From positions 1-31,820 of the IMG/VR virus record IMGVR_UViG_3300046820_002180: 31,820 nucleotides of DNA; one strand, 5' to 3'. The notes beneath the pieces are model-generated. The model worked only from the letters and a program-made list of their open reading frames with translations. It was not told the DNA's origin and did no database searches. The stretch comes from a virus (Duplodnaviria; Heunggongvirae; Uroviricota; Caudoviricetes). Shown piece by piece: positions 4,925 through 28,133 of the stretch. Both the position numbers and the translations under genes were made by a program. How positions within the stretch are numbered: position 1 is the first letter of the stretch; the number at the start of each line of letters is the position of its first letter.

Positions 4925-7900
4925 ATGATACAAAAACATAGAATTCATACCAATATTGGAGAAGACCAATACATTAAATTCGAAGTCAAACAAGATTTTG
5001 ATTTATTGGAGTTGTTGTCTTTAAAATTATCCCAAAGGGATGTGTACACATCGTTATGTGCTGACTATGGTGTTGTTTGTGGTAGACTTACCGTAAATAA
5101 TGGTTTTGGAGTACCAAACGCTCGAGTTTCAATTTTCGTACCATTAGACGATGACGATGTAAATGACCCTGTAATATCAGCGTTATACCCATATACTGAA
5201 GTTTCAGTTAAAGACGATAATCATTATCGATACAATTTATTACCGGCGAGAAGACAACATAGCGGACACGCGGCAACAGGTACATTTCCTGACCAAACAG
5301 ATATTTTAGATAGAGAAGAAGTTTTAGAGGTGTATGAAAAATATTACAAGTACACCGTAAAAACAAATAGTGCGGGTGACTTTATGATTTGGGGGGTACC
5401 ATTGGGTGAACAAATCATAGTATGTGACGTGGATTTGTCAGATATTAGTTGTTTCTCATTAAGACCTGATGATTACTTAAGAAAAGGATTCGGTTTAGAG
5501 GAATTTAAATCTGCTTATGAATTTAAGGCTAGTGTCGATATTGACTCACTTCCACAAATTAAAACATTTAGAAAAACAATTGAAGTTTATCCTTTTTGGG
5601 GTTCTGAAGATTTATGTGAAATTGGTATAACAAGAACCGATTTTGATTTATCAGACCAAGGAGTTAAAATTGAACCAAAGGCTTACCTTATTGGAGGAAC
5701 TTATACAGACGGTAGAGCGGGAGTCAAAGCAAATTGTAGTATTAAAAGAGATAGTAACAAAAAATGTGATTTAACGACAAAGGCTGGTAAAATAGAAATG
5801 ATTCGTTTTACTGCAGAATACGACTCCAACAACAGACCGATTTTAGAAGTATATGATGTAAAAGAAGACATCACGGATGACGGTTCATTTATTGTGTCGT
5901 TACCGATGAATATGGATTTTGTTTATACAAATGAATTTGGTGAGAATGAATATTCCAATGACCCAAACAAAGGTATACCAACATCAGGATGTTATCGTTT
6001 TAGATTTACAACACAACAACAAGGTACTGCTCAAATATTAGTACCTAACATTAGAGAGTACAGTACAAACATAGACAAGTCATACGCTTGGTCTAATAAT
6101 TATATCGATTACCCATCAGAAGCATTAAGTTTAATACTAAACACATCTGATGGATTTTATGTACCACAAGACTATTTTTATAGATTTACATATAATAAAG
6201 TTTTTACAGTATCATCATTTCATAATTCGTTTTTTAAAAATTCATTATCAACTCTTTCAGGTCAATTATTAGGAATAAAAGAAATTGCACCACCAAGAGA
6301 AGCCGATTGTGAATCTTCAGTTGTAACACCGCCGGTTAATTTTGGTTTTAGAAATTACACGGTTAAATTATTAATTGCAGATATATTATTATTCTTTGAA
6401 CAGTTAGCAACAGTATCTGGTTTTATTTTTAATAACACAGTAGCTAAAATTTTTCATAGATTTTCAGATGCTACGAATTTTTGGCCGATTAAGTCTGTTA
6501 GCAGGGCGTTAAGAAGATATGCTTACGGAATTCAAGATGGTGGACAAAGAGAATTGTTTTTAATTGATTATCCTTCTTGTCTTGAATGTAATAAAGATAA
6601 TGAATACGGTACTGTGGGCGGTTTAGGAAATGGAATTGATTATTGTGAGGTCGGTACTGTAACAATTCAAGGTTCATCTACGGAAACCCCAAGAACCGTA
6701 ACTGCAAGTAATTTTACTTTCTCAAATCCCGACCCTACAGGTATATGTTCAGGAGCGACAGTTCCAAGTGATTTAACAAATTTTTTAAATAATCAAACAA
6801 ATTATATTTTAACAACAAGTAGTAATGGTGTTCTTTTAACTGGTACCACCATTTTTACATCAGGAGCAACAATAACTTTTAACGATGTCTCAGGATTATT
6901 CAATGAGACGATAACATATACCGCAATAATTAGAGATAAAAATGCATCTTCGGTTGAATCAACCACAACTGACATATTAGAAGAGGGTTGTGCAATATAT
7001 GATACACCATATGATGAATCGTTAGTTCAGAAATATTATGTTGCACCAAATAGAACTGAAAAAACACCATTACAATACACTGCCGGAATGGATGTACAGG
7101 CCACCTTAATATCAGACGTTGACAGTAGTAATAAACCATTACCAACAATATATGACGGAGAAACCTATACACCAAGAACACCATCAGGTCAATCTGAATT
7201 TACTAATGGTATTTTTTATATGGTTCCCGGCACTATGACAAATCGTAGAGTGGTTAACATAATGAAAGAATATAGAAGACGTAGACGTATGTCTAAATTA
7301 TTTTGTTCGGGAGTTGTTAACTATTCATTCGTGGATAATTGGTTATCAGGTTCTTTATATTTCTTTACATTTGAAACACAAAAAAGATTTTTATTTTGGA
7401 GTAAATCTGCTTGTTGTGAACAATTAATTAAGAGAACGGTACAGACTAATTTAGAAACAAATCAAAGTGAATCACATTATTATTATAGGGCAACGCCATA
7501 TAATAACGGCACAGGTGTTTGGGGAAGAACATTTAACGGTTCGAGAAAAAGAATCAATAGACCAACAACTATTGTTGATTTAGGTCCGAGAGATGAATTC
7601 ATAAGAGAAATATGTGTAGACCCAAATCTTGACCCTAACTGCTCTGTGTCAAGAGAAATAGGACCAACTTCTTATAAAGATTTTGGTGAGATTCTTGGTA
7701 TGGCAATTAACTACAGAATGGATGTTAGTAACGCTAATTTCGACTTAAGAAATTTCTTTGATAATAATGGATTTTATAATAATGGAATTCGAAGTGCTTT
7801 CGATGGAGATTTATTACAATTAATATCAATTAATAATGAGGTGGGCATTGAACAATTTGATTTACAAAATCCAAAATATATTGGATATAGCTATCAAATA

Positions 7901-8671
7901 TTAGACCCTGAATTATATCCTGACGTTTTTAAAAGAAATGGAGTTTGGGGACCATTACCAATCACTATGGAATTTTCTGAAGATGGTGAAAGAGTAAGGG
8001 CTTGTTTAAATGAACCGACTCACATTGCAAATGATGGAGTAACACAAATACAAGGTCGATTAACTGAATCATCACAACCGGTACCATTCTTCTTATGGGA
8101 TAAAAAGGGTACAGGATTTGGTGCATATAATACTGAAACTCTTGACGACCAATCTTGGGATATTTCAAATGTTCAAGTACAACCTTTACAAGGTATGACA
8201 TATGCATATAATGTAACAGGAACCACTGATGATTCATCAGACAAATATTTGTTATTACCAATAACTTATAATTTTACAGGAACCTCAGTGTCAACACTTA
8301 ATGTTGTTGATGATGAAGGTTTTGCGTATGATGCTGTTATTTCAGGAATTACAGGAAACGAATACCATCAATACGATTCACAATATCCAGGTTATACTGT
8401 TTTACAAGTAACTTCAGGAACATTGGCGAATCCATCTTCAGGAACTTTATACACTCGTTATGGTAATGCTGGAACTTGGGATGGAATTCCTTGGACAACA
8501 TCCACAGATTTCTTCATTAGAAGAACACAAGATTATTATAGTGGAACTAAACAAATCCTGTCAACCCCATTTATGTTTCACTTTGGATTAAAACCTGGTA
8601 AAACTGGTCTCGATAAATTTATTGATAGGTTTGGACCTAAGGGTGCATTTAAATCAACAGACTTAACGTAA
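4925..8671 (+). CDS. Large virion/baseplate-associated protein (1248 aa) with an N-terminal carboxypeptidase-regulatory-like beta-sandwich
   Basis: Long ORF in the baseplate cluster. VVCGRLTVNNGFGVPNARVSIF...TNSAGDFMIWGVPLG resembles the prealbumin/CarboxypepD_reg fold. One hydrophobic stretch and a beta/Thr-rich middle. Confidence 0.6.
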   Translation: MIQKHRIHTNIGEDQYIKFEVKQDFDLLELLSLKLSQRDVYTSLCADYGVVCGRLTVNNGFGVPNARVSIFVPLDDDDVNDPVISALYPYTEVSVKDDNHYRYNLLPARRQHSGHAATGTFPDQTDILDREEVLEVYEKYYKYTVKTNSAGDFMIWGVPLGEQIIVCDVDLSDISCFSLRPDDYLRKGFGLEEFKSAYEFKASVDIDSLPQIKTFRKTIEVYPFWGSEDLCEIGITRTDFDLSDQGVKIEPKAYLIGGTYTDGRAGVKANCSIKRDSNKKCDLTTKAGKIEMIRFTAEYDSNNRPILEVYDVKEDITDDGSFIVSLPMNMDFVYTNEFGENEYSNDPNKGIPTSGCYRFRFTTQQQGTAQILVPNIREYSTNIDKSYAWSNNYIDYPSEALSLILNTSDGFYVPQDYFYRFTYNKVFTVSSFHNSFFKNSLSTLSGQLLGIKEIAPPREADCESSVVTPPVNFGFRNYTVKLLIADILLFFEQLATVSGFIFNNTVAKIFHRFSDATNFWPIKSVSRALRRYAYGIQDGGQRELFLIDYPSCLECNKDNEYGTVGGLGNGIDYCEVGTVTIQGSSTETPRTVTASNFTFSNPDPTGICSGATVPSDLTNFLNNQTNYILTTSSNGVLLTGTTIFTSGATITFNDVSGLFNETITYTAIIRDKNASSVESTTTDILEEGCAIYDTPYDESLVQKYYVAPNRTEKTPLQYTAGMDVQATLISDVDSSNKPLPTIYDGETYTPRTPSGQSEFTNGIFYMVPGTMTNRRVVNIMKEYRRRRRMSKLFCSGVVNYSFVDNWLSGSLYFFTFETQKRFLFWSKSACCEQLIKRTVQTNLETNQSESHYYYRATPYNNGTGVWGRTFNGSRKRINRPTTIVDLGPRDEFIREICVDPNLDPNCSVSREIGPTSYKDFGEILGMAINYRMDVSNANFDLRNFFDNNGFYNNGIRSAFDGDLLQLISINNEVGIEQFDLQNPKYIGYSYQILDPELYPDVFKRNGVWGPLPITMEFSEDGERVRACLNEPTHIANDGVTQIQGRLTESSQPVPFFLWDKKGTGFGAYNTETLDDQSWDISNVQVQPLQGMTYAYNVTGTTDDSSDKYLLLPITYNFTGTSVSTLNVVDDEGFAYDAVISGITGNEYHQYDSQYPGYTVLQVTSGTLANPSSGTLYTRYGNAGTWDGIPWTTSTDFFIRRTQDYYSGTKQILSTPFMFHFGLKPGKTGLDKFIDRFGPKGAFKSTDLT

Positions 8672-10470
8672 TGGAAAAGAGAAAAATTATATTACCTGAA
8701 AAAAGGTTTCACAAAGCATCTTCAGAAGACCAAATCCTCCAAGTTAATTTTGAGGAAGGTAAGAGTTTATTAACTAATGATGATAGAGATATTATTTTAG
8801 ACATTAATGAATTATTTGGTCAAGAAAGAAATGATAGTAAAAGATACAAGTTGTATGGTAAAATAAAGATGGTGTTTAGAAATATGTACAGTGGATTGTC
8901 AAGTTATCTTCCATTGTCTGAAGAGTTAGCATTAGTTGGTGATGGTGATGACGGAGAATTTGATGGTTACTTACCATACAACGAGTTCGCGTTTTTAAGA
9001 AATGATGTGTACAGAGAAAAACCTAATGATATTGATGTTTCAGACTTAAGTACATTTACAGGAATCACCGTAACAAAAACAGGAGACATAACTCACCAAT
9101 TGATTACACCAATGAATGCTCCGTATCACAATTGGAACATTCACGTATCATATGTGTACGACCACGATGAAAACTATCCGATGAAATATACTTTATCGGG
9201 AAATACAACATTAAGTTTTGTCAGCGGTAATGGTATACCATTTAGAATTACCGATAACAACGCAAGTTATAGATTGACAAGTCCTGTTGACCACGGAATG
9301 AGTGAAGGTGAATTTATTATATTAAATGGATATCCATATTATATAAATTCAATTGGTAATGAATATTATAATTCAGAATTATATGTTTTAGATATTTTAA
9401 AATCTCAAATACCATCAGGTACTACAACATTTAATAATACATTAATTACAGGTAAAAGATGTATCGATTCCAAAAACATTTCAGGAACAACATCAACTTA
9501 CTATGTACACAAACATAAAACGGCAACTAATTCTGCGGATTACATTTTAGATAAGGCAGGATTTGAAAGTCCAATATTTGAAGACGAAAGAAAATTAGTT
9601 TTTGAAAACATATCAGGAGCTAACGATGTGTTGGTTGAAAGAAATAGAATGGAATCAGTTCTTTATGATTTTAAAGAACCATTCGTTTTAACAGGACTAA
9701 CCAACAATTTAAATTATGAACCTACAGATTTATATGTAACAATATTATTTAGAAATGGTAATGGTTATTTTGACTATCCACCAAAGGTAGGTTGGAAATT
9801 TAATTTACATAATACTTGGATTGATAATCATTTTAACGGTTCAAATAAAACTCAACCACCGTATGAGTCTGGTTTAGGATTAGGTACATCATTTACAAAA
9901 GGAGGAATTACATTCACTAGTGGAAATACAATACCTGTTGGTACAGTATTAACAGGTGCATTTATAGAGTATAATCCATCGACAATAAAGGAAAGAGTTA
10001 TTTCAGAATCAATGTATAGGTTAACAAACCCAACAAACATTTTCAATTTTAACCAATCAGTTACAGTTGAAGGGTTTTCAGGAGCAACCTCGACAAATAT
10101 GTACGGAGTATTATATCAACCACATTACCGAGTTAAAATTAGAGAACTATCTCCTTATATTGAAACATCATCAACACCCGATATTGAAAATCTACCACAA
10201 AATGCTAAATACTTCCCGTTTGAGAATGTATGGAAATGGAGAGACGTGTATGATTACGGTTATTCGGACGATTTAGGATTTGGAGTGGACTATCCGTTTC
10301 TTAATAATACACACTACGTTAGGAACGATATTAATTTCTATATGAGAAATGAAAAAAATTATCAACACAAAGCTGATGGTATTTTTGATTTTAATGCATT
10401 TATCAATAGATATAATAATAAAAATAACAGATTAGATAGAAATAATTCAAACACAAGTAAAAACTGTTAA
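8671..10470 (+). CDS. Putative virion structural protein (599 aa)
   Basis: TAATG stop/start overlap with both neighbours. Aromatic, beta-rich composition and seven [ST]GxT motifs. Confidence 0.6.
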   Translation: MEKRKIILPEKRFHKASSEDQILQVNFEEGKSLLTNDDRDIILDINELFGQERNDSKRYKLYGKIKMVFRNMYSGLSSYLPLSEELALVGDGDDGEFDGYLPYNEFAFLRNDVYREKPNDIDVSDLSTFTGITVTKTGDITHQLITPMNAPYHNWNIHVSYVYDHDENYPMKYTLSGNTTLSFVSGNGIPFRITDNNASYRLTSPVDHGMSEGEFIILNGYPYYINSIGNEYYNSELYVLDILKSQIPSGTTTFNNTLITGKRCIDSKNISGTTSTYYVHKHKTATNSADYILDKAGFESPIFEDERKLVFENISGANDVLVERNRMESVLYDFKEPFVLTGLTNNLNYEPTDLYVTILFRNGNGYFDYPPKVGWKFNLHNTWIDNHFNGSNKTQPPYESGLGLGTSFTKGGITFTSGNTIPVGTVLTGAFIEYNPSTIKERVISESMYRLTNPTNIFNFNQSVTVEGFSGATSTNMYGVLYQPHYRVKIRELSPYIETSSTPDIENLPQNAKYFPFENVWKWRDVYDYGYSDDLGFGVDYPFLNNTHYVRNDINFYMRNEKNYQHKADGIFDFNAFINRYNNKNNRLDRNNSNTSKNC

Positions 10471-11276
10471 TGAAAGTTTTAAAAAACATTAGAGATAATA
10501 TATTTTTTAATTTAGAAACCAACTTTAAACCTGATTTAGGAAGAGAAGATGCGTTAGAACAATTTGAAAATGAAACAGTAAGGACAATCATTAATCCGGT
10601 TGATAATTACGAAACTATGAGGTTTATACATAAACCTTATTCTGGTATCACATCACATTCTACCGACACTCAATCAGACATTTGGTTTTATTTTTATTTC
10701 TATAATCAAAGTGGAACACATAGTGGTGGGTTAGACTATTCCTTAATTGGTATTGACCATAAGGAAAATGCACAACAATTAATTCACACAACTAAATCGT
10801 TTTTTAGATTGGAATTTTTTATCGTTCCTGACGGAGAAAATCCCGACAGAACAAATAGAAAATTAGTTTTTGCTAAAAATCTTTCATTACCATTAGGTGA
10901 GAAAGTTTTTTACACAGGATTCAATGATTATATAAGTGTACCAATATTCAACGGTTCAAATTATAGAAATAAAGAAAATATGTATCTGTTTTGGTTCCAA
11001 GACGACGACGCGTTCAGAGGAACTATGTTAACAGGAACAACATTTTATATGACGGCTAGATTTTTTAATGGTGAAGATGGAACAGTTTTAAACTTTTCAA
11101 ACACATCATTGGCAACTAACGCTTCAGTTTTAGAATATAGAGATTTATATTATAAGGTAACCATAGACAGGACGGATTATTCTTATCAAGTGTTTAGATA
11201 TTCAGGAACCACAGGAACCAGAATTGGTGAATCGGGAGACCCCATAAAATTTTATGAAATAGTATCTGGAGGATAA
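10470..11276 (+). CDS. Putative virion structural protein (268 aa)
   Basis: TAATG-coupled ORF within the structural operon. Confidence 0.6.
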   Translation: MKVLKNIRDNIFFNLETNFKPDLGREDALEQFENETVRTIINPVDNYETMRFIHKPYSGITSHSTDTQSDIWFYFYFYNQSGTHSGGLDYSLIGIDHKENAQQLIHTTKSFFRLEFFIVPDGENPDRTNRKLVFAKNLSLPLGEKVFYTGFNDYISVPIFNGSNYRNKENMYLFWFQDDDAFRGTMLTGTTFYMTARFFNGEDGTVLNFSNTSLATNASVLEYRDLYYKVTIDRTDYSYQVFRYSGTTGTRIGESGDPIKFYEIVSGG

Positions 11277-12211
11277 TGAATAAAGTAACACATACCATAT
11301 TAAAAACCACAACAGGTCAAACTTTTAATTTACCACTATTTTTAGAACAAAGTATTAAGGATTTGGGAATTATGATTGGGTTTGATGGTAATATTGGTCA
11401 AACTCAACAGATATGTAATTTTACATATAAAGGTAATGGTAATTCAGTTACTGTTTACAATACTGTTAACACAACAAGGTACGGAGCATTAATTGACGCA
11501 ATCTTTACAGTTAAATGGGGAGACGGTGCAACAAGTACACTTACAATGCCGGTTATGAATATCGACGACGTGAGTTTACCAAGTGCTTCACACACATATT
11601 CAAGTAATGGAACATACATTATTGAAGTTACAGTAAGTTCTCCTTGGGACGTTAGAAAGGTAAAAAAGACAATAAAAATCCCCTTTGTTCAATCCTTTGG
11701 GTACCCAACTGATTTAGGGCAATTAACTTTTGACGTTCCGTATAGTGAAGGAGATACACAATCACAAACCTATCTACAAGATTATAGAACCCTAACAGGT
11801 GCCACTAATAGTACCACGGTTACCTTTTTGGGTATTGGTAAAAGTAGAATTGATGAGAAAAAATTATATGGAACAAATGCGGGTTACACAGGGGTAACAG
11901 TTACTTTAGAATATTCAGGATATACAATTGACGGGTTGGTTTATAGAGATTATGAAGATGGGTATACGCATATATCAGGAGTGACTTCAGGAACCACAGA
12001 AACATTTTTTCAAGACGAAATCTACAACGGAATGATTACAAGAAATGAACATTTTTTAGGATTTGTAGACGACCCACAAATTTTTTCAGATGTTTTTGTT
12101 GAGAGAGGACAGATGGGAGTTATGGAAAGAAACTTCAGATTGACCGAAATGGACAACACAGGAGAATTAGATGTTTATGGAAATGGATATTTTAAAGTAC
12201 GAAAACAATAA
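11276..12211 (+). CDS. PKD-like domain-containing virion protein (311 aa)
   Basis: FTVKWGDGATST...SASHTYSSNGTYIIEVTV matches the PKD signature (WGDG...HTY..G.Y). TAATG-coupled. Confidence 0.7.
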   Translation: MNKVTHTILKTTTGQTFNLPLFLEQSIKDLGIMIGFDGNIGQTQQICNFTYKGNGNSVTVYNTVNTTRYGALIDAIFTVKWGDGATSTLTMPVMNIDDVSLPSASHTYSSNGTYIIEVTVSSPWDVRKVKKTIKIPFVQSFGYPTDLGQLTFDVPYSEGDTQSQTYLQDYRTLTGATNSTTVTFLGIGKSRIDEKKLYGTNAGYTGVTVTLEYSGYTIDGLVYRDYEDGYTHISGVTSGTTETFFQDEIYNGMITRNEHFLGFVDDPQIFSDVFVERGQMGVMERNFRLTEMDNTGELDVYGNGYFKVRKQ

Positions 12212-12217
12212 AAATTA

Positions 12218-12224
12218 TATTTAT
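12218..12224 (+). promoter_or_regulatory. TATTTAT motif, putative late promoter
   Basis: In the 29-nt intergenic gap, 16 nt upstream of the ATG at 12241. Confidence 0.55.
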
Positions 12225-12240
12225 AGATAAATAATAAAAG

Positions 12241-13149
12241 ATGGCAGTAGGAAGTTACGGAACTATAAGACCTGCGGATGTTTCACCGGCCGATGTTGAT
12301 ATATATTATCACTTCGTTTCGGGTAGAACCGCTAGTACAGAAGTTCAATTTGAGAAGATAGATAACTCACAAGATATATTAACACCTGTATTCCACAATG
12401 ATTCAACAGGTGGTAATTCAGGTACTGAACTATTGGGTGGTATGTATAACCTAAAACTAGAATCATCAAGATTCTCTGAGTTGGGTATATATACATTATA
12501 CTTGAGACCAAAACAAATCAGAACAGTTGTTTCTGATTGTGGTGTATTGTCATCATTACCATCGGTTAGAGGATTGATTATTGACATTTCCCAAATCGAC
12601 GCTGGCGACACTAACAAATTTACACCCCAAGGTTTAGTAGGTTACCGAGTTGAGTACTTGGATGATTCAGGTGCTAAGATTCCTAATTTTTTTAGAATTG
12701 TTACCTCATCTTTTTACTGTGAACCAGTGTTATCGAATTTAACAAATTCATCACAAAAAGCAATTAGATACAGATATTCTGATATAACAACAAACTTAAT
12801 GTTTTTGACATTAACACCAAGCTCTTCACCGTCTAGTAGACCTAATACCATACCATTTATTGGTCAACCAAATCAAAATATCATTCTAACAAATACACAT
12901 TTTAATCCTGTTATGTTAGAAGTTGAAATGGTAGAACACGATGCAACAACATTGGCACACGCACTTTACGGTAATCAAAGTAAGTCGGTTGTTGATGGAA
13001 TTTACACGATTTATGACCAAAATAATAATATCTATAAGCAGTTTAACTTATACGAAATTAAAGACGATATTAACGAGACACTATACGAAATAAGAGAGAA
13101 GAATGATAATATCGACGAAACATTAAATTTTGATGTTATAACTCAATAA
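12241..13149 (+). CDS. Putative virion structural protein (302 aa)
   Basis: Clean ORF with an A-rich leader, TAATG-coupled to the 2137-aa gene. Confidence 0.6.
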
Positions 13150-16100
13150 TGGCTAAAATAACAAGAAAGGTCCCATATCAGGCGGCTAGTGGTGGTGAAA
13201 CGTTCAATGACAAGCTCATCGGTTTACAAATAACTGATGGTTCTAGTCAATTGGCCAATACCCAATTCCTTATTGATAGAGTAATTCCTGAAAAAGACAG
13301 TAAGACTTTTCACACACAACCATTTTCTGATTTCCTTACTTTAGATACATTAAAAGAAGAAACGAATTCAATTTATGATAATAACTCTACAGGTATTAAT
13401 TTACCTGATAGAAGTAAAAAAATTAAATTTCATAATTCTAAAAACGATGCGTCAAAATCTTTATTTGGTTCCTTATCAACAAGATTAAATGGTGCGGTTG
13501 GGAATATCATCGAAAGTTTTCCTGCCGCGTTATTGGTTGACGTCGACTCACCAGTTTCATCAACTAATGTTAGTGCGGTATTAACGGGTGCAACTCTCGG
13601 GTACGACCCAATTTCAAACACCACACAATTCCAATTTAAAAAATCTTTAATTTACAATCCATTTGATATTGTTATTCAAAGACCTCAAGGGGTTGAAGTT
13701 TTACAATCAACTAATTCATATAGAGATTTTTATTCATCATATACAAAATATGTGGTGGATAACCTCAGTGGTTCAACATATGAAATCGTTTCATACGAAG
13801 AACCTGATAATGATGGTTTTATTACATTAAAAGTAAAAGGATATTGTTTCGGTGGATATTCAATCTACACTGATAACTTTTTAATTAGACCAAATAATGG
13901 TGTAACTGAAGAATTCTTCAATAGTCTTGATGAATTAGAAACCGTATTATTAGATAGAGAATCAACACCCAAATATACCGCAGCATTTAGAATACCGACA
14001 GATTTATATGATGGAGCAGTCACAGAATTACAAAGTGAATTTGCAACTTGGCCATTAAGTCGAGATGGGTGGAACATACAAATAGTTGGTCTTGATTACG
14101 AATCATACGTTTCCGAATTAAGTAATATAGGTAATATTGTTGACGATTATAAATCAAACTTAATCATTAGATTTATGACGTCACCGCAACTTTATGAATT
14201 CGATACTGAAGGAAAAAAGGCGGAGGCAATCTTCCAACTTTATGGACAGAGTTTCGATAAGGTAAAGAAGTTTATTGACAATATTGCGTTTATGAGAAAT
14301 GTTAGCTATGATAAAGCTAACAACGTACCTGACGTATTGTTAAAAAATTTAGCGGAAACATTAGGTCTATCAACAGTCAATCTTTATGATGAAAAGTCAT
14401 TAGAAGAAACTCTTTATACAAGACATACTTCACAATACGAAGGACTTAATATAGGTGCTAATTTATTAGAGGGTGAGTATGAATTTTACAGAAGATTAAT
14501 TGTAAACCTTGCACAATTATATAAATCAAAAGGTACAAGATTAGCGATTGAATTCTTTTTAAAATTCATCGGTGCTCCTGAACCTATGATAAGGTTGGAT
14601 GAATACATCTATCGAGTTGATAGTTTACTACCAAAGGCCACATATGAAAATGATATTAGAGATGTAATCAATGGAGTAAAAGAATTTCAACACGTTGAGT
14701 TTGTACCATTTGCACAAACAATTGATGGTGTTGATTACAATGCATACACTTATAGATTGGTGACCACATCTGGTTCAACCGTACTATCAAGAAGTCAATA
14801 CCCTGTAACAACTGATGGATTACCGAGAGGATTGGAAAGTTCCGATGGTTCATTGTATTTTGCAATGGGTGCCGGTTGGTATAGAAAAACATTAGACCAC
14901 AGGTCTGGTGATATCTTAGACGTTGAAAATTCAGTACTTACGGGTAATACTAAAGTTCTTAAAACAAAATCAAAACCATTTACATATGGTGAAGATTATT
15001 TTAATAACTACAGAAAATTACCTGGTTTAGATTATGGTTACGATTTAAACATCGAAATTGATAATAGAAAAACTGAAGTATTAGATGACGATGGTAATTT
15101 TACATATAAATTAAACAGAAAAAATATTAATATTTTCTTAGATGGTTCAAGAGCAATCGATTATGACATCTATAGAAAAAGTAGAAACTTAACGTTGACT
15201 TTTGGTACTTTACCACCACAGGAAAGACCATCATTCGCCGAGTTTTTAAAAGAAGCGGTTAGTCAAGTAATTAGAAATTCAAGTACAATTAAGTACAAGA
15301 AAGAATACAGACTATTAAAACAAGTCTATGAATCGTATGTAAATAGCGTTTCATTTACACCGTACAATTACATTAAAATAAATGAATTTATTCAAAGAAT
15401 GAGTCCATATTGGGTTAATGTAATTGACCAATTCGTTCCTGCAACGACCCAATGGTTGGGAGGTAACTTAATAGAAAACGGAATATTCGGTAGGTCTAAA
15501 TTCCAATACAAACAACCTTGTACACCAAAAGAATTTGTTGAGGTATTATATCCTGATTTCGAAACTGTAATTGAGGAAGACTTAGAAACAATTTTAGGTG
15601 GAGGGACTACATCATATGAAAACGCATCCAATGAAGATAGTCTAAGAGGATTATTTTCATTTAGCGGTTTAACATATACAATTTATTTAAACATAAATGG
15701 TAATATCTATTCAGGAACAAGTTCAAACTTACGTTCAGAGCTTTTCTCAGGATACACACCAACGGTTAGATGTACTTCATTAACTCAAACATCTTTATCT
15801 GTTCCATTAATTTGTGATTACAAAAATTGGATTAATTTAAATTTACCATTAATTAAAAACAAATGGAAAGAAACATTAACAAATTTAGTACAAACAATTA
15901 ATAGTCAAATAACTCAAGACAACTATGGTTGTATTGATGATTATGCACCATACACGGCAAAGACACAAACAGCGAATTGTTCTCAAATTTATAAAAAGAC
16001 ACTTTCGTTAGAATATTTCTTAGATATTGATGGTGTTGAAAAGGTAAGATTTACATTAGATACTACCGATTGTAGAAACGGTGAAGATATTGATTTTTAT

Positions 16101-19100
16101 TTTGAACCGAATTATGGTTTAGATAAAGACGAATGTAATTTAAGAGTTGAATTGTCAGGACCGGCAATACCATATCAAGGAGTTACAAAAAATTGTCAAT
16201 TAGTTGAAGACGTATACATAACTGTTACAGGAGTAACAACAGGTGTTGAAAATAATGGTATTTGGGATTTAAACATATACGTTACAAGTGGAACAACTTG
16301 TAACTCGGGTGTATGTACTGATTGTGATTTTATTGAAATCAATGACCCTAAACCAATTAAGAGAGCAATATATGCTGACGATTTACAGTTAGTTACTTGT
16401 ACATATATCATCCCTAATGTTAAAGAAACAGACGTATATGATATTATTGTTTCCGACGCCGCAAACTGTGAACAAAAATTTAGAATTGAAGGATTACAAC
16501 AAAAGATAGTTAAAATTTCTGATGAAGTAAGTGGTTATACTATAAATCCAAAAGTTCAATACAAAACATCTTTCGATTATGGTATAAAGAAAGGGACCGA
16601 AATTTACAAATATATTTCAGGGTCAGTTCCAACAACTTGGCAAGGACTACAAAGTACTCTATCATCTGGTGGAGTTGTTGAGACATCAATCGAAGATATT
16701 GAAATAGGTGACACGATTTTAAGTATAAGTCAAAAAGATTGTAATTTACTTCCAACGGAAATGTTTAAGTTCGTTGAGAGTAACGGTTATCAATTTACCT
16801 TTGATTATTCATTAATAAAAGTAGTAAGAAAAGAATGTTTAAGTTCAATTAAGAAAGATGTTATTAATGGTGAGTTTGAAGTGTTACCAACAAGTAAAGT
16901 TTTGGTATACACTAACATTAATGAATACTTAGAAACTGTTCCATATCATTTTACATACAAATATCCTGAAGATTTATTTGTAAGACCTGAACAACCTGAA
17001 GTACCTTGTTGTGAATATCCTGAAGGACATTTTCAGAGTGGAGACTTTATGATAAGTCAATACGGTTTTCCTATTGAGGTAACAAGTGTTGATTTAAATT
17101 ATTGTAATAGAGGAATTTACTACACATTAGTAACATCAGGAACTTCAATCAATTCAGATACAATCTTATTTAATGGACCTTCAAGTGGTATTAATAGAAT
17201 TGTTGTGTCAACTAAAAATGATTCAGCATTCATTAGTCCATTTACAGGAAATAAATTTGAGTGTTTAGATATTGATACTCAACAATATTATTTAGGTTAT
17301 GAATGTGATAACGTACCGAGTGTTGAAAGTTTATTAAGATTAACAGGTTGTACCGATGGTAATTGTACTCAAGTACAGGCAGGACCAAATACACAAAGGT
17401 CATATATTGCTGAAGATACTACACCAACACCAACACCTAGTCCAACTCCAACTCCTACACCGACCCCTACAGGTACACCTACACCTACACCTACACCGAC
17501 ATCAACACCTACACCGACTAGTACTCCCACACCTACCGCAACAGGTACACCTACACCAACACCAACAATTACCCCAACACCTACCGCAACAGGTACACCT
17601 ACACCAACACCAACAATTACCCCAACACCTACCGCAACAGGTACACCTACACCAACACCAACAATTACCCCAACACCTACCGCAACAGGTACACCTACAC
17701 CAACACCAACAATTACCCCAACTCCTGTTTGTAACTTTAATGTGGGTGTAATTTTAGTATCGTCAACCCCAACTCCAACACCTACATCAACATCAACACC
17801 AACACCAACGCCTGTTTGTGACTTTAATGTAGGGGTTACTATTATAGCTTCAACACCGACTCCAACACCTACATCTACACCGACCCCAACTCCAACACCT
17901 GTTTGTGATTTTAACATAGGTGTTAACATTATTGCATCAACTCCAACTCCTACACCAACACCTACGAGTACTCCAACTCCTACCCCAACACCAACACCTA
18001 CACCGGTTTGTGATTTCGGTATTGGAGTGATAGTTATTGCATCTACACCAACTCCAACACCTACACCAACACCAACTAACACACCTACCAGTACTCCTAC
18101 GCCAACTCCGACACCTACACCAACTCCGGTTTGTGAATTTGGAATTGGAGTAACGATTATTGCATCTACACCAACACCAACACCCACTCCAACTAGTACA
18201 CCAACTAGTACTCCTACCAATACACCAACTGTAACTCCAACACCTACACCGGTTTGTGAATTTGGAATTGGAACAATTATTATCGCATCAACTCCAACAC
18301 CTACACCTACTAGCACACCAACACCGACAGCGACTGCTACACCAACACCAACTGCAACTGCAACTCCGACATCAACACCAACTAGTACACCAACTAGCAC
18401 ACCGACACCAACGGCAACTCCAATATGTGAATTTGGAATTGGAACAATTATTATCGCGTCAACACCGACTCCTACACCTACTAGCACACCGACTAATACA
18501 CCAACGCCAACACCTACAAGTACACCTACACCAACTGCCACAGGTACACCTACACCTACACCAACTAGTACACCAACTAGTACACCAACTAGTACACCAA
18601 CTAGTACGCCAACACCAACTGCAACTCCGGTTTGTGAATTTGGAATTGGGGTGATAGTTATTGCATCAACTCCAACACCTACACCTACAAGTACACCTAC
18701 ACCAACTGCAACTCCAACCGCAACTCCAACATCAACACCAGTACCACCTACAGAAACTCCTACACCTACACCAACAAGTACACCAACACCAACAAGTACA
18801 CCAACACCAACAGCTACAGCAACTCCAACGCCAACTGCAACTCCAATATGTGAATTTGGAATTGGTGTGGTAGTTATTGCTTCGACCCCAACACCGACCC
18901 CAACTAATACACCAACTAGCACACCGACCCCAACGCCGACTAATACACCAATACCAACTGACACTCCAACACCGACACCTACTAATACACCAATACCAAC
19001 CGACACACCAACGCCAACACCAACTAACACACCTACTAATACACCAATACCAACCGACACACCAACGCCAACACCAACTAACACACCTACGCCAACACCA

Positions 19101-19562
19101 ACTAACACACCTACCCCTACACCAACAGAGACCCCAACACCTTGTGTGGCGACTATTACTAATACAAGTAACCCAACAAGTTGTGGATTTAACGCTGACG
19201 GTTCATTAACATTAAATGGTTCAGGTGGGGTTGGTCCGTACACGTATTATTTATATGAGGACACAACATTCCCTTATGAAACATCGGGAGGTAGTGTTTA
19301 TCCTGGATTCCCTGTAACTAACCAAACAGGTGGTTACAATGTAACAGGATTAGTACCTGGTGGATATTACTTAAGAATTGTAGATGCGAACGGATGTGAA
19401 GACTTTAGTGAAGTTGTGGTATTACCATATGACGACACTACTTGTGTGACCCCACCACCAACAACATATTTCTGTAAAGAAAATGAAATGAGTCCTTGTC
19501 TTGAACAAGTAAGTCCTTGTACCGGAAGCCAAATAGTTTGTACACAATTTGAACAAGTTTAA
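13149..19562 (+). CDS. Giant baseplate wedge protein (gp7 / P2 gpI-like region) fused to a degenerate Hint domain, a Thr-Pro stalk with nine Cys beads, an SprB-type repeat and a Cys-rich tip
   Basis: [14 protein letters not shown]...[28 protein letters not shown] is the P2-I/gp7-type signature. Hint-like blocks at 16581-17219, TP region at 17418-19142, SprB-like repeat from 19143. Confidence 0.75.
16581..17219 (+). other. Degenerate (probably catalytically dead) Hint/intein-like domain inside the 2137-aa protein
   Basis: Ordered blocks [42 protein letters not shown]...[26 protein letters not shown]...DTILFNG...IVVSTKN follow the Hint pattern. Cys1 is replaced by Gly, the TxxH His is missing and there is no HN. 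Confidence 0.6.
17418..19142 (+). repeat. Thr-Pro (mucin-like) coding repeat, about 575 aa, interrupted by nine P[VI]CxFx[VI]Gxx[ILV][IV][AS]S units
   Basis: ACN-CCN codon repeats. Cys codons at 17730, 17817, 17904, 18009, 18132, 18255, 18426, 18633 and 18849. Confidence 0.97.
17529..17720 (+). repeat. Perfect tandem repeat, 4 x 48 bp ([16 protein letters not shown])
   Basis: Unit acacctaccgcaacaggtacacctacaccaacaccaacaattacccca at 17529, 17577, 17625 and 17673. Confidence 0.95.
19143..19430 (+). other. SprB-type repeat domain (Bacteroidota adhesin-like)
   Basis: [25 protein letters not shown]...[18 protein letters not shown] matches the SprB repeat pattern SC...DGSI....SGG..PYTY...GL..G.Y...V.DANGC. 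Confidence 0.8.
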
Positions 19563-19590
19563 GCCTTTAGAATTATAATAAAAAATAAGA

Positions 19591-19597: not shown

Positions 19598-19619
19598 ATA
19601 AAACAAAACAAGCGCTAAA

Positions 19620-20123
19620 ATGAAAAATAATCAAAAAGGATGTTTAATCCAAGGAACATTAATCTCAATGGCTGACGGAACTTCAAAATTAATTGAAGAA
19701 GTTGTTGTTGGTGATGAAGTTAAATCAATTAAATTAAATCAAGAAGCTGGAGTATTTGAAGAAGTTGTAGGTACTGTTGTTGAATTACAACAAGCTGAAA
19801 CTGAATTAGTATACTCAATAAACAATGGTTTAATCGTTGCATCTGAAGACCATAAACATATTGTTAGACAAAAAACACCAGAAGGTGATGCGTACACTGA
19901 AAGATGGATTGTATGTGACACTACTTTTGTTGTTGCTGATGATAAAATGATGGGTGCGGATGGTATTGAAATTGAAGTAACGGATAAAGAAGAGGTTACA
20001 GGAACTAAAACAGTTCATAACTTAGTGATAGAAAACCATAACACATTTATTGCAAATGGTGTTATAACCTATAACGAGATTTTACCTGAGGTAACGGAAG
20101 AAGAAACTCCGGCAGGAGAGTAA
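19620..20123 (+). CDS. Free-standing Hint (bacterial intein-like, BIL-type) domain protein
   Basis: G|CLIQGTLISMADG, IEEVVVGDEV, block B ASEDH, block F/G VHNLVIENHNTFIANGVITYN. The Hint spans residues 8-152, with a 7-aa N-flank and a 15-aa acidic C-flank. Confidence 0.88.
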   Translation: MKNNQKGCLIQGTLISMADGTSKLIEEVVVGDEVKSIKLNQEAGVFEEVVGTVVELQQAETELVYSINNGLIVASEDHKHIVRQKTPEGDAYTERWIVCDTTFVVADDKMMGADGIEIEVTDKEEVTGTKTVHNLVIENHNTFIANGVITYNEILPEVTEEETPAGE

Positions 20124-20141
20124 TTTAAACAAATTTAAAAT

Positions 20142-20828: not shown

Positions 20829-20853
20829 AAGTATAATTAAAATTTATAAAATT

Positions 20854-20881
20854 AAACCCCTTTATTTTAAGGGGTTTTTTT
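20854..20881 (+). terminator. Rho-independent terminator
   Basis: AAACCCCTT-TATTTT-AAGGGGTTT followed by a T run. Confidence 0.85.
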
Positions 20882-20913
20882 ATGGTTTATTTTTAATAAA
20901 AAAAAGGATATAC

Positions 20914-20920
20914 TATTTAT
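20914..20920 (+). promoter_or_regulatory. TATTTAT motif, putative late promoter
   Basis: 5 nt upstream of the ATG at 20926. Confidence 0.6.
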
Positions 20921-20925
20921 GTATT

Positions 20926-22656: not shown

Positions 22657-22679
22657 TGAAATAAAATTATAAATAAAAA

Positions 22680-24113
22680 ATGGCAGTAGCAAGCATAACG
22701 GTTAATTACACGGCGAGTTGTACAGGATGTACACAAGAATATAGGTATGCCCTTAGTAGTGGTAATATCAATACCGCTACAGTTATACCATATTCAGGTT
22801 CGTCACCTATAGTCATTACAGGTTTAACGACGGGTAATTCGTATGTTTTTCAAATGAGAAATGTGTGTGAATTAATTTCAAGTGATTGGACAAGTGTACA
22901 AACCGTAACCTGTGAAGGAGTAATAACACCTACAGCCACACCTACAGCCACACCTACAGCAACTCCTACTCCTACACCAACGGCAACTGTGGCGGGACCT
23001 ACTGCAACACCAACACCTACACCTACTCCGACCGCAACTATTGCAGTACCAACCCCAACCCCAACACCGACCCCTACATTGAATATAGTTGACCCTGAAG
23101 ACCCAATAGTATATTATTACTATGCTTTAGGTAATTGTAATGATATGAGATACTCAGGTACCGAAACGACTGTTTTTGGTATTGGAGCACCATTAGTGGT
23201 TCCTGTTTGTATGACCTCTGCACAAATTACTCAATGGTATTCTACAGCTAATTTTGCACAACAATCGTTAAGTATTGATTACGACGACCCTTGTGGTTTT
23301 GGTGATAACTATTCGGGAGTTGCCATTGGTAGAAGTACCACACAATTAACAGAAGGAACAGTTTATCTTGTTGGTAACAATTGTTTATCAATTGTTGCAG
23401 TTGAAACACAATACGTTCAAAATTGGAGCGTGAATTTAGATGGAATCTCACCAATAGGTGGTGATAATCCTTGTGGAGCTTGTGACCCACCATTTACAGG
23501 ATATACACTTGCAGGATATAGTGGTGTGACTTGTGATACAGGTGAAAATATCCTTGCGGTATCAATACTTGGTAGTTTAGTGGTGGGTAATGAATATGGA
23601 ATACAATTGTATAGTGGGAATACTCCTATGGCCAATACTAGATGTATGACTATCAACGCCAATCTTGGTCCTCAACTTACTCTTACGGACCCAATAAATA
23701 ATCCATATTCAGGACATCATATCACAGATGGAGGACCATTTGTGTTAGGACAACCAATATTCCAAGGATATACCGATTGTGGAACTTGTAATGCAACACC
23801 TAAAAAATATAAAATAGATGGAGTAAGGTGTGACAACTCTCAATATAGTGTAACTGTATGGTCAAATACATTACCAACAATTGGAATTAACGATACGTTT
23901 AGAGTTAATGATTCATTCTTAAACACATTCTGTTGGAAGGTAATAGCAAAAGATAATTATAAAACAGTAGTATATGGATATCCTGAATATAGTATTTTGG
24001 ATACAGGATGTTCACCTTGTGACGGAACCCCACCAACAACACCAGCACCTACTCCAACCGATAGTGGAGGAAGTGGAGGTAGTGGAGGAAGCTCTGGAGG
24101 ATACAGCGGTTAA
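22680..24113 (+). CDS. FN3-like N-domain + TP linker + three Cys-rich repeats (477 aa), putative adhesin
   Basis: ITGLTTGNSYVFQMRNVC...SDW is FN3-like. Three repeats end in CxxC (CGAC, CGTC, CSPC). Gly/Ser tail. Confidence 0.75.
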   Translation: MAVASITVNYTASCTGCTQEYRYALSSGNINTATVIPYSGSSPIVITGLTTGNSYVFQMRNVCELISSDWTSVQTVTCEGVITPTATPTATPTATPTPTPTATVAGPTATPTPTPTPTATIAVPTPTPTPTPTLNIVDPEDPIVYYYYALGNCNDMRYSGTETTVFGIGAPLVVPVCMTSAQITQWYSTANFAQQSLSIDYDDPCGFGDNYSGVAIGRSTTQLTEGTVYLVGNNCLSIVAVETQYVQNWSVNLDGISPIGGDNPCGACDPPFTGYTLAGYSGVTCDTGENILAVSILGSLVVGNEYGIQLYSGNTPMANTRCMTINANLGPQLTLTDPINNPYSGHHITDGGPFVLGQPIFQGYTDCGTCNATPKKYKIDGVRCDNSQYSVTVWSNTLPTIGINDTFRVNDSFLNTFCWKVIAKDNYKTVVYGYPEYSILDTGCSPCDGTPPTTPAPTPTDSGGSGGSGGSSGGYSG

Positions 24114-24127
24114 AAAAAATTAAATAT

Positions 24128-24772
24128 ATGGGAACATTTAATAGAGAAGCTAATTTAAACGATAGTGTTTTTTTTCAAAGAGGAGTTGTTAAAACAACAA
24201 ATCATTGGACAAGACCATCGTATCAAAAAGTCTATGATTTTTTATTTAATTTATATCTTAAATCAACAATCATTAAAGATTATGATGTTTATTTAATGGG
24301 AGGAGTTTTATTTGATTTCAATAACACTTGGGATTTAGATATGTGTCTTGTCGGAGGTAACCACACTGATGAAAAAATAGAAAAAGATTTAAATTTTATG
24401 ATGGATATGGGATTAAATCAATTTAATCTATTATTAGATGTTACTTGGTATGAACAAAGACCATCCAATTTAAGATATGACCAAATGGTTGAAAACGAGT
24501 TTAAACCGGACAATATTATTCACAAAAAAATAGGATATACCAAAAAACAAATTAATAATGAATTTGAAGAAAAAGATTTAAGAAATGACTCAAACTTTAT
24601 TTTATTGAGTGACTATTTGGTTCAAGGAAATTATGGAGTAAATGGTAGACATACCGAAAAAATGATAAATAAAGTTCAAAATAACACGAAACCGGAAACA
24701 ATAACAACATTTAGTGTTATGGATTTTTTAAAAGAAAATGAAAGTTATTTCCATTCTAACACAAATAGATAA
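24128..24772 (+). CDS. Pol-beta-superfamily nucleotidyltransferase-like protein (214 aa)
   Basis: VYLMGGVL-x6-WDLDMCL gives the hG[GS]...DxD motif. The third acidic residue is in LLLDVTW. Confidence 0.7.
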   Translation: MGTFNREANLNDSVFFQRGVVKTTNHWTRPSYQKVYDFLFNLYLKSTIIKDYDVYLMGGVLFDFNNTWDLDMCLVGGNHTDEKIEKDLNFMMDMGLNQFNLLLDVTWYEQRPSNLRYDQMVENEFKPDNIIHKKIGYTKKQINNEFEEKDLRNDSNFILLSDYLVQGNYGVNGRHTEKMINKVQNNTKPETITTFSVMDFLKENESYFHSNTNR

Positions 24773-24784
24773 AATAAAAAAACG

Positions 24785-24791
24785 TATTTAT
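24785..24791 (+). promoter_or_regulatory. TATTTAT motif, putative late promoter
   Basis: 5 nt upstream of the ATG at 24797. Confidence 0.6.
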
Positions 24792-24796
24792 ACTAA

Positions 24797-25918: not shown

Positions 25919-25934
25919 TAAAACATAAAAAGAA

Positions 25935-25941
25935 TATTTAT
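25935..25941 (+). promoter_or_regulatory. TATTTAT motif, putative late promoter
   Basis: 5 nt upstream of the ATG at 25947. Confidence 0.6.
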
Positions 25942-25946
25942 AACAT

Positions 25947-28133
25947 ATGAGTTTTTTACACGAGAATGAATCAGAACATATAGCAGCAAGAATTACCAAT
26001 GAGGGTAGACAAAAAATTGCTGAAGGTAATTTCAACATTACCTACTTCCAAGTGGGTGATTCTGAATACGACTATAATTTTGAGGAGTATGACGGTACTA
26101 CCGGTACCACAAACCCATCTCAAAAGGTATTCACACCTTTGGATAAAGATTCTATTGTAAAATATCCATATAAATTATCAGAATCTACAGTCACAGGTAC
26201 AACATTCGGTAACCCCGTTCAAGTTTCTCAAATTGAAACAATTAGAAATGAAATGGGACCTGCTGGATTTGTTTCTGCTTATTTAGAATATGATGGAATT
26301 CCTTGTACAGGGACAACAGTTGAATGTTCAAATGAAAAAATACCTGTTTCTGCATTATCAGGAACTACAACGTTATACTTAACTGGAAATACATTTTCAA
26401 ATTGTGAGTTTATTACAATAGCATTTACTGAATTAGTTGGTACTGACTTAAATTGTCCAATTATTTCTGGCACATCAACAAGTTTAATATATAGAGTAAC
26501 AAATTTTGTTTCAGGATTAACGTTTAACACATTAACATTAGATAGAGCAACTCCGAGTATGTCAAACATATGTTCGGGAGGTTCGGCGACTGTTATGTGT
26601 AATAAATGTAATCCATTTTTCCCTGGTCCATATGAAACTGATTTAACTTGTTTACCAAATACACAAAACCCTGAAGACCAACAAGACCCTTGGACATTAA
26701 ACATTGTGTGGAGTGAAAGACCTGCGGGTGTTAAAAATCAAGGAGCTGAGATACAAGAATATGTTAGTGGATACACAAGTAACGTATTTGTTTCAACCAA
26801 AGAATTTTTAGGATATGGTTCTTCATCAGGACAGACAGTTAACACAGGTACAACCATCACAAATAGTTTTGGTGATTCTGTAATTGTTTTACCTGAGGAA
26901 CAACATAGTATTGCTATTATTCATTATTCAGAACTTAATACAGAAAGAGAACCTGAAAAATTCTTTAAGTATGAAGATTATATTAGTACTAATAATAGTG
27001 TAGTAGATGCTTTATTATACGATTCAGATGATGAGCCGGTAACAGACTTAGATTATTTTGAAGTTTATATTCCATTTATTTATTATCATAGAAATACAGG
27101 GACAACAGTAGGTGCAAGATTCACAATGGACACTACAGATTATTTTGTTAACTCTACAGCTATTGATACTAAATTAAATAAATTAAAATATAGATATCTT
27201 TTAGATGAAAGAGGATATAGAGTAGGTAGAGTTTATGTAAATCATAAAGTAATTGTATTTGACGACCAAGAAATTGTTGCAGTCTTAGATTACAAATCTA
27301 ATAGAAAATACACCTTACCAATTCCAAGAGTTGCACAAGTTCCTGTTGATACTAAATGTAGCACAACAGGAAACCCGTTAGAACCTTTAATGAGTGGAAC
27401 AACAGGTCAAACTGTTTTTGTAACATATCTATTAGAATTTAGTGGGTCAACTTCATTACATTGTAATCACTATTCAAAAATTACAGGTACATCATTAAAT
27501 GCTGATATATCATTTAGATTCTCAGACAATGATTGGGTTCATATGAAATCAACCAAGTGTGGATTTAAAAATGGATTTATAGCTGACAAATTATATGCGT
27601 TAGTTCAATTGGTAGATACAGGAGACCAACCACAAACAGATTTGTGGAGAAAAATTAACATTACATCTGATATTCCGAACCATATGGCTATGAGTGGTAA
27701 CACAGGAGGATTAATTGACCCTGATAATCTTAGAGGTGCTCGTTTTGTAATAACAAACGATGATTATGATAATGTGATTAATTATGTACCATACGACATT
27801 GAAGACCATTTAGGTGAATTACCGAATCAACCGGCACCTTATGATAACGGTAGTTTTTATCAAACCACACCTCAATTTGGAGACGAACAACCATTCCCTG
27901 GTAGTATTAAATTGGTAAGAGCTTCTGACTTAACGGTTATGAGATTTTTAGTAAACCTACCAAATGGTGAATTTACCACAACACAAAATCCAAGTTATAC
28001 AACAGGTAAAACCAAACGAATAACTGAAGTCGGTTTATTCAATAGTAACAAAGAACTTTTAGTTATTGGTAAAACACCAAAACCAATTCATAGAGTGGGT
28101 ACACAAGTTTTTGCAGTAAAAATTGACCTCTAA
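25947..28133 (+). CDS. Baseplate / tail-fibre attachment protein (tail-collar-fibre, DUF3751-like termini) with a large insertion
   Basis: N-terminal ARITNEGRQKIA...ITYFQVGDSE and C-terminal ITEVGLFNSNKELLVIGKTPKPI match the two ends of the P2 gpH-N/DUF3751-like fold. Confidence 0.65.
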   Translation: MSFLHENESEHIAARITNEGRQKIAEGNFNITYFQVGDSEYDYNFEEYDGTTGTTNPSQKVFTPLDKDSIVKYPYKLSESTVTGTTFGNPVQVSQIETIRNEMGPAGFVSAYLEYDGIPCTGTTVECSNEKIPVSALSGTTTLYLTGNTFSNCEFITIAFTELVGTDLNCPIISGTSTSLIYRVTNFVSGLTFNTLTLDRATPSMSNICSGGSATVMCNKCNPFFPGPYETDLTCLPNTQNPEDQQDPWTLNIVWSERPAGVKNQGAEIQEYVSGYTSNVFVSTKEFLGYGSSSGQTVNTGTTITNSFGDSVIVLPEEQHSIAIIHYSELNTEREPEKFFKYEDYISTNNSVVDALLYDSDDEPVTDLDYFEVYIPFIYYHRNTGTTVGARFTMDTTDYFVNSTAIDTKLNKLKYRYLLDERGYRVGRVYVNHKVIVFDDQEIVAVLDYKSNRKYTLPIPRVAQVPVDTKCSTTGNPLEPLMSGTTGQTVFVTYLLEFSGSTSLHCNHYSKITGTSLNADISFRFSDNDWVHMKSTKCGFKNGFIADKLYALVQLVDTGDQPQTDLWRKINITSDIPNHMAMSGNTGGLIDPDNLRGARFVITNDDYDNVINYVPYDIEDHLGELPNQPAPYDNGSFYQTTPQFGDEQPFPGSIKLVRASDLTVMRFLVNLPNGEFTTTQNPSYTTGKTKRITEVGLFNSNKELLVIGKTPKPIHRVGTQVFAVKIDL

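Follow-up and report, generated by a model that had tools for sequence, protein, structure and literature searches.

The subject of this study is a stretch of viral DNA of 31,820 nucleotides, here called the window, and a short protein motif, [ST]GxT (Ser or Thr, Gly, any residue, Thr), that recurs in the virion proteins encoded there. The window makes up the first 31.8 kb of one viral contig of 159,820 bp with 33% G+C, designated G000, and its genes (Table 1) run in the order NrdA, gp25-like, gp6-like baseplate protein, a series of unknown proteins, an open reading frame (ORF) with Hint-type matches, variable fibre-region genes, a protein of 728 amino acids (aa) and finally replication genes. 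For the series of 1248, 599, 268, 311, 302 and 2137 aa neither Pfam nor PHROGs gave an identity, and most genes of the virion module are unrecognised by Pfam. The [ST]GxT motif is real and kept by selection, and it characterises outward-facing virion proteins throughout a large clade of uncultured aquatic phages, which probably infect Bacteroidota and some of whose contigs exceed 300 kb.

The completeness of G000 was estimated by CheckV as 48%. Judged by the coordinates of its BLAST matches, it corresponds to about positions 180–336 kb of a relative of 335,630 bp, G019, and because the contig is partial, the capsid, sheath, late sigma and core family 2 glycosyltransferase (GT2) genes of this phage lie outside the record. 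Related contigs reach 288–335 kb, and two near-complete relatives were read whole, G005 (288 kb, 92% complete) and G019 (336 kb, 100% complete). No cultured close relative was found by a tblastn search of a phage collection, nor did any proteomic data come to light. NrdA is nearest to proteins of Tenacibaculum and Cellulophaga phages, and the gp6-like protein is 29% identical to its counterpart in Flavobacterium phage immuto. From these similarities, the host of the G000 phage is likely to be a member of the Bacteroidota.

Table 1. Features of the window, with window positions, strand, and copies of [ST]GxT or other remarks.
Feature	Position	Strand	Remarks
NrdA	33..2423	+	Pfam Ribonuc_red_lgC; non-virion control, 0 copies vs 0.45 expected
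gp25-like and gp6-like inner baseplate wedge genes	2585..4871	+	Pfam GPW_gp25, Baseplate_J; negative controls, 0 copies, likewise 0 in G005 and G019 orthologues
1248-aa protein after gp6 (gp7 position)	4925..8671	+	5 copies vs 1.43 expected; marginal
599-aa baseplate-module protein	8671..10470	+	7 copies vs 0.48 expected
268-aa baseplate-module protein	10470..11276	+	3 copies vs 0.30 expected; weak alone
311-aa baseplate-module protein	11276..12211	+	6 copies vs 0.87 expected; weak PKD-like Pfam match only
302-aa protein inside enriched module	12241..13149	+	1 copy; unenriched
2137-aa giant fibre/stalk protein with Thr-Pro-rich stalk	13149..19562	+	10 copies outside stalk; weak alone
Free-standing 167-aa ORF between giant stalk protein and variable fibre genes	19620-20123		weak Hint/intein-type Pfam matches (E = 4e-4)
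477-aa variable fibre-region protein	22680..24113	+	5 copies vs 1.69 expected; marginal
214-aa ORF among fibre genes	24128..24772	+	0 copies; possible nucleotidyltransferase fold
728-aa conserved peripheral baseplate-type protein	25947..28133	+	15 copies; strongest carrier

Motif counts and controls in the source contig

A recount ORF by ORF gave 15 copies in the 728-aa protein, seven in the 599-aa, six in the 311-aa, three in the 268-aa and ten in the 2137-aa protein, matching exactly the hand counts of an earlier note on this DNA, which had been made from the letters alone. The same note had seen no copies in NrdA, the gp6-like protein, RuvC, primase or the nucleases, and the recount agreed, with none in NrdA, gp25, the gp6-like protein or any ORF of 28173–44627. 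Its background rate of one copy per 700 aa suits the Thr-rich carriers (the 728-aa protein expects 1.09), while the genome-wide composition gives one per 1324 aa. When residues were shuffled, the counts of the 728, 599, 311 and 268-aa proteins had P <= 0.001 and that of the 2137-aa protein, where composition predicts 5.4 copies, P = 0.05. When dipeptides were preserved, the observed count was reached in 0 of 1000 shuffles for the 728-aa (mean 2.6), 599-aa (mean 1.2) and 311-aa (mean 1.2) proteins, with P = 0.016 for the 2137-aa protein; the 268-aa (P = 0.10), 1248-aa (P = 0.056) and 477-aa (P = 0.07) proteins were not significant alone. Among 8000 patterns of the form A-B-x-C, scanned in four main proteins that were picked post hoc, SGxT and TGxT took ranks 1 and 2 (P = 3e-15 and 3.5e-9). 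Overall, [ST]G.T stands at 11.3 times expectation in these four proteins and the gapless [ST]GT at 5.8 times, with permuted or near forms (T.G[ST], [ST].GT, G[ST].T, [DN]G.T, [ST]G.S, [ST]G.V and [ST]A.T) mostly at 0–2.5 times.

These figures bear directly on the possibility that the excess is a statistical or compositional artefact of Thr/Ser/Gly-rich loops or hidden repeats. The carriers are Thr-rich, three of them fail the dipeptide test individually, and the proteins of the pattern scan were chosen after the fact. However, motifs of the same composition in permuted order are not enriched, so local Thr/Ser/Gly-rich composition was rejected as the cause, and the dipeptide shuffles of three proteins never reached the observed count. 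Other S/T/G-rich fibre ORFs of the genome, at positions 59674 and 105687, show no enrichment (1 vs 7.8 and 7 vs 8.0 expected). BLAST detected neither similarity between the enriched proteins nor repeats within them, so hidden repeats or paralogy among the carriers were rejected, and the earlier proposal that the copies did not arise by duplication was upheld. Since the codons at the motif vary, a DNA-level motif was also rejected and the signal lies in the protein. The excess recurs, moreover, in independent orthologues and in hundreds of homologues, and an artefact is now largely refuted and very improbable. The enrichment over shuffled proteins thus outlasts composition control and is specific to the order of the residues. 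For the 728, 599 and 311-aa proteins it amounts to 6–14 fold.

Clade-wide spread, site turnover and predicted structure

A set of 554 virion-side proteins (334 kaa) contains 2947 copies of [ST]G.T where 827 are expected, a 3.56-fold excess, of which pairwise terms account for only 1.3–1.4. The control patterns in the same proteins stand at 0.77 ([DN]G.T), 0.92 ([ST]G.[VI]), 0.82 ([ST]A.T) and 1.33 (reversed T.G[ST]), and because none is comparably enriched, both hydroxyls and the Gly are required. Thr makes up 59% of position 0. A hydrophobic residue stands at -1, where D, E, K and R fall to 0.1–0.3 of background (Asp to 0.2, over 2582 unique contexts); +2 excludes Pro, and there is a hydrophobic tendency at +4. 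As an observation in its own right, the reversed pattern T.G[ST] reaches 3.6 times expectation (159 vs 44) within 1–118 kb of G019.

The excess is found again in the orthologues of the two near-complete relatives. Those of the 599-aa protein carry 8 copies vs 0.69 expected (G005) and 17 vs 1.03 (G019), those of the 311-aa protein 11 vs 1.15 and 8 vs 0.88 respectively, and those of the 2137-aa protein 19 vs 1.33 (G005) and 18 vs 4.9 (G019). The 268-aa orthologue of G019 has 7 vs 1.11, and the 1248-aa orthologues have 11 vs 1.56 in G005 and just one copy in G019. In the tail sheath of each relative (951–965 aa) the seven copies are confined to the part ahead of residue 660, and the Pfam sheath core is free of them. 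The G019 major capsid protein has only three vs 0.6 expected, and the downstream replication genes have almost none. The contrast drawn in the earlier note between virion and non-virion proteins can accordingly be sharpened, in that the motif is confined to outer virion proteins or domains and is missing from gp25, gp6, the sheath core and the replication genes. Within the enriched module the 302-aa protein stands apart, being its most conserved gene (62–66% identity to the orthologues of distant relatives) with 1, 0 and 1 copies in G000, G005 and G019. No family match was found for it; its possible roles are those of an inner component or an assembly factor. The 728-aa family is far larger, with more than 1183 full-length homologues found, and 177 distinct homologues carry a mean of 11.5 copies against 1.0 expected.

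Outside the clade the picture is different. The virion proteins of T4 show no excess (9 vs 8.5 expected), nor does T4 Hoc (1 vs 0.97), and the baseplate and fibres of Flavobacterium phage immuto were likewise counted as having none (20 vs 11.6). The motif was therefore rejected as a general trait of myovirus baseplates, of Ig-like decoration domains or of Flavobacterium phages. An apparent avoidance in the replication block (ratio 0.34) was also rejected, being confounded by orthology and by the wide spread of the control motifs. A search of the literature found no paper describing an [ST]GxT motif.

Within the 728-aa family, representatives have from 0 to 17 copies, and at least six homologues that align over their full length (among them P0129, P0136, P0138, P0156, P0169 and P0215) have none, the Gly also being lost at most of their sites. 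Since motif-free, full-length homologues exist, the motif is not a requirement of the fold and is dispensable for it. A scan of IMG/VR with the motif-free P0129 gave no match, and what scans with the family alignment brought up was for the most part short contigs of relatives rich in the motif. Eight sites are kept by 50% or more of the 177 homologues, contributing about six copies per protein and each having its own preferred middle residue; a further 19 intermediate, clade-specific sites contribute about four, and rare sites are at chance level only. When six enriched families were aligned across the three genomes, 85 sites proved private to a single genome and 12 were common to all three, every genome being enriched. 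Positions thus turn over between orthologues in a way that fits selection for the motif. Roughly every second copy in the 728-aa family, however, is inherited at a conserved position, so the convergent origin that the earlier note had proposed does not hold for all copies.

The structure of the 728-aa protein was predicted with AlphaFold2 (AF2). An earlier model from 37 close sequences was poor (pLDDT 56), and one from 132 diverse sequences was confident (pLDDT 90.6, pTM 0.88). Foldseek found no match for either model, and nothing was named by Pfam, PHROGs, a PDB sequence search or the Atlas. With VIA-align, the combined N- and C-terminal domain matched baseplate and fibre-adaptor chains at middling Z scores (9h4p_BD, 9.3; 9euf_b, 6.9; 9xpg_A, 6.0; 8jou_a, 5.6), and residues 121–220 resemble a common beta-barrel. 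From the model, the protein is probably a peripheral baseplate component. The earlier suggestion to map the copies onto a predicted structure placed all 15 in coil, that is, in loops, but in mixed contexts: immediately following a strand (146, 189, 499), immediately preceding one (138, 300, 486, 686), at the N-terminus of a helix (274) and in long loops (52, 83, 384, 583). Going by the model, the copies do not appear to be one fixed structural element.

These data allow an alternative to be weighed in which the motif stays unmodified and acts as a loop or strand cap, [Ser/Thr]-Gly ending one beta-strand and x-Thr starting the next, with the hydrophobic neighbours facing the core and the two hydroxyls bonded to each other or to the backbone, all as a habit of this clade in building beta-rich outer domains. 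Such an element would account for the hydrophobic flanks at -1 and +4 and the alternating hydrophobicity that follows, for the copies at strand boundaries in the 728-aa model, for the eight conserved sites with site-specific middle residues, and for non-virion proteins that do not avoid the motif. It would also suit copies in which the turn is part of a repeat, as in FN3-like or leucine-rich-repeat-like contexts. It fits poorly with homologues of the same fold that have no copies, with the lack of excess in the baseplates of T4 and immuto, with the helix and long-loop contexts and with the heavy turnover between orthologues. The usual equivalents of such an element, a D or N cap ([DN]G.T) and a V or I strand start ([ST]G.[VI]), are moreover not enriched. 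On balance a purely structural role appears somewhat unlikely, but it stays a strong rival because some sites are conserved, the flanks are hydrophobic and no enzyme could be linked to the motif.

Two repeat contexts can be described separately. The 477-aa protein has two copies in FN3-like settings of the form I-TGLT-xG-xY. In a fibre-region protein of a relative (L024 5105–7012; 635 aa) there are 22 copies, many in the periodic, leucine-rich-repeat-like arrangement ..I-SGxT-xxIP-TGxT-xFxIxG.., and because of this periodic placement the motif in some relatives is part of a solenoid repeat.

Glycosyltransferases and other candidate enzymes

A search for glycosyltransferases elsewhere in the genome had been proposed in the earlier note, and they were found in G000, with many in the clade, accompanied by sugar-nucleotide enzymes. 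G000 encodes two paralogues combining GT7 (N- and C-terminal) with Laminin_G_3 (GT7-LamG), three GT2 proteins over the Pfam cut-off and one weak GT2-like protein, and two of GT1/4 type. Its sugar island lies outside the window, at 68–105 kb and 112–119 kb (L003:18227 to L005:15813; L006:7074–13509), and also holds four or five epimerases/dehydratases, an RmlC-like protein, thiamine-diphosphate enzymes, two radical SAM paralogues, three DUF6734 proteins, PhyH, 2-oxoglutarate (2OG) oxygenases, a NodU-type carbamoyltransferase and a methyltransferase. The island is common to G019 and nearly all of it is absent from G005. At G000 95195–98213 (L005:5379–8394) a gene resembling those of flavin-dependent tryptophan halogenases (Pfam Trp_halogenase, E = 1e-86) has three small genes for 2OG-Fe(II) oxygenases on its flanks, an unusual cargo for a phage.

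GT2 matches over the cut-off number six in G005 and five in G019. One GT2 protein of 259 aa is core to the clade, its members being 62–80% identical, and it occurs in 15 of 29 contigs and in all four records that are at least 90% complete. In G019 it lies in a conserved block on the minus strand (133469–140014; L167) with genes for a late sigma-like protein, unknown proteins of 351 and 228 aa, PhoH, dUTPase and a protein of 407 aa with a weak GT1_4 match.

A second class of potential acceptor is the Thr-Pro stalk of the 2137-aa protein (window about 16000–19562), where there are up to 84 Thr plus Pro per 100 aa and PTxT/TPxP patterns are at 17–20 times expectation. It causes a local shift in G+C and GC skew and a spurious antisense ORF of 624 aa (17369–19243). 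Stalks of this kind occur in the fibre proteins of nearly all relatives examined, so their occurrence only together with the GT7-LamG island was rejected. They would be a classic target for mucin-like O-glycosylation.

The motif might also be recognised by something other than a glycosyltransferase, for phosphorylation, acylation or a phosphocholine-type transfer, for docking of a decoration protein, a fibre-network partner or a chaperone, or for contact with a host surface glycan. Its specificity, outer location, turnover and clade restriction fit such a reader equally well, and the many virion-module genes without a Pfam match leave room for one. The 214-aa ORF among the fibre genes is a lead only: it has no Pfam match, an Atlas feature search lists NTP_transf_2 clusters at 0.92, and no link to the motif was shown. 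On the other side, no candidate reader was found, the most obvious surplus enzymes of the clade are glycosyltransferases, and hydrophobic flanks are ill-suited to an exposed docking peptide. A reader of this type seems improbable, more so than a structural role.

Interpretation and comparison with known systems

The reading we favour, at a probability of roughly 0.4, is that the motif may be a new O-glycosylation-type sequon that is read in trans. A signal read in trans fits because the motif depends sharply on a Gly and two hydroxyls, can be lost without loss of the fold, turns over between relatives and is restricted to the clade, and because the clade has a surplus of glycosyltransferases. 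Hydrophobic-[Ser/Thr]-Gly-x(not Pro)-Thr would then be a short linear signal kept by selection in loops of the peripheral baseplate, the fibres and the outer sheath domains, and its reader would be a trans-acting phage enzyme, for which an O-glycosyltransferase is the best candidate. A sugar might be placed on the Ser/Thr at position 0 or on the Thr at +3, and the outcome would be a glycan coat on the periphery of the tail. Attachment at the motif, the sugar nature of the group and the writer enzyme are all three matters that we infer. Of the modification or binding-site proposal in the earlier note, what stood is a selected, order-specific motif of the outer virion; no glycosyltransferase could be tied to it. 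A fuller version, and a slightly more doubtful one, is that this undescribed sequon could be read by the core glycosyltransferase set (the GT2 beside late sigma and neighbouring candidate GT-B enzymes), with a glycan coat on the sheath exterior, baseplate periphery and fibres, and with the Thr-Pro stalks perhaps serving as a second, mucin-like acceptor.

Several results weigh against a glycosylation signal. No enzyme could be tied to the motif across the genomes compared. The GT7-LamG pair or the sugar island is unsupported as the writer, being absent from the 92%-complete G005, which retains the motif, and the core GT2, sited with dUTPase and PhoH, could equally serve in DNA modification. The motif loads of the 728-aa homologue and of neighbouring virion proteins co-vary weakly (Spearman 0.37 for the excess and 0.00 for the ratio), the two being concordant in L208 and L210 and discordant in L182, L186 and L244. 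About 6 of the 11.5 copies per 728-aa homologue are at inherited, conserved alignment positions, and non-virion proteins do not avoid the motif, with genome-wide ratios of about 0.9. The hydrophobic flanks mean that the motif segment could be partly buried. Placement in coil is uninformative, as coil takes in 44 of the model's 52 Gly residues, and loop location was accordingly rejected as evidence for the role of the motif.

To our knowledge, glycosylation of tailed-phage virions has been shown solely in mycobacteriophages, and without a defined sequon there. Virion glycosylation encoded by the phage is known in that group, where mass spectrometry located the glycans on extensions at the C-termini of capsid and tail-tube subunits (Freeman et al. 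2023, Cell Host Microbe, as cited in PMC12619734). The clade studied here is similar in that its phages encode glycosyltransferases of their own and in that, on the proposed reading, sugars would be placed on exposed virion proteins and coat the particle surface. It differs in the phylum of the host, in being a prediction from sequence, and in its candidate sites, a four-residue motif found in internal loops within the domains of baseplate, fibre and outer sheath. The acceptor location of the mycobacteriophages, in C-terminal Ser/Thr-rich extensions of capsid or tail-tube proteins, has no counterpart here.

Three sequons from other settings can be compared. The N-x-[S/T] sequons of viral glycan shields are short, ordered motifs with a hydroxyl residue at a fixed offset, and they resemble [ST]GxT in behaviour only, as their number is kept and their positions turn over between relatives (here the 85 private and 12 shared sites). 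In the present case the acceptor would be Ser or Thr (O-linked), in the bacterial cytoplasm and with no oligosaccharyltransferase. The general O-glycosylation sequon of the Bacteroidota is D-[S/T]-[A/I/L/V/M/T], and that host system acts outside the cytoplasm, while tailed-phage virions assemble inside it. It belongs to the probable host phylum and, as an O-glycosylation sequon of three residues with a hydrophobic neighbour, resembles the proposed reading of the motif, but it needs an Asp before the Ser/Thr, where Asp is depleted here, and in [ST]GxT the Gly at +1 is obligatory. The proteoglycan xylosylation site is Ser-Gly-x-Gly with acidic flanks, and GT7-family enzymes act in that pathway. 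The likeness lies in the Ser-Gly core and in the two GT7-like proteins of G000. The differences are the predominance of Thr at position 0, a Thr rather than a Gly at +3, the depletion of D and E at -1, and the lack of the GT7-LamG pair in the motif-retaining G005.

A further parallel is with the 'moraphages', large aquatic phages with predicted Flavobacteriia hosts, in which four core orthogroups are putative glycosyltransferases of unknown target (PMC12619734). The G000 clade resembles them, in that its members too are large phages from aquatic metagenomes, have gp25, gp6 and sheath genes of the T4 type and are predicted to infect Bacteroidota, but that paper makes no mention of an [ST]GxT motif.

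Even a purely structural motif would cleanly mark outward-facing domains in proteins that otherwise defy annotation. If it is a glycosylation signal, a strict four-residue code would cover the outer tail in a clade of more than 1000 metagenomic members, and phage glycoproteins would become predictable from sequence. It would also supply a simple, testable pair, a motif peptide and a candidate enzyme, and would suggest a function for the many orphan glycosyltransferases of large aquatic phages.

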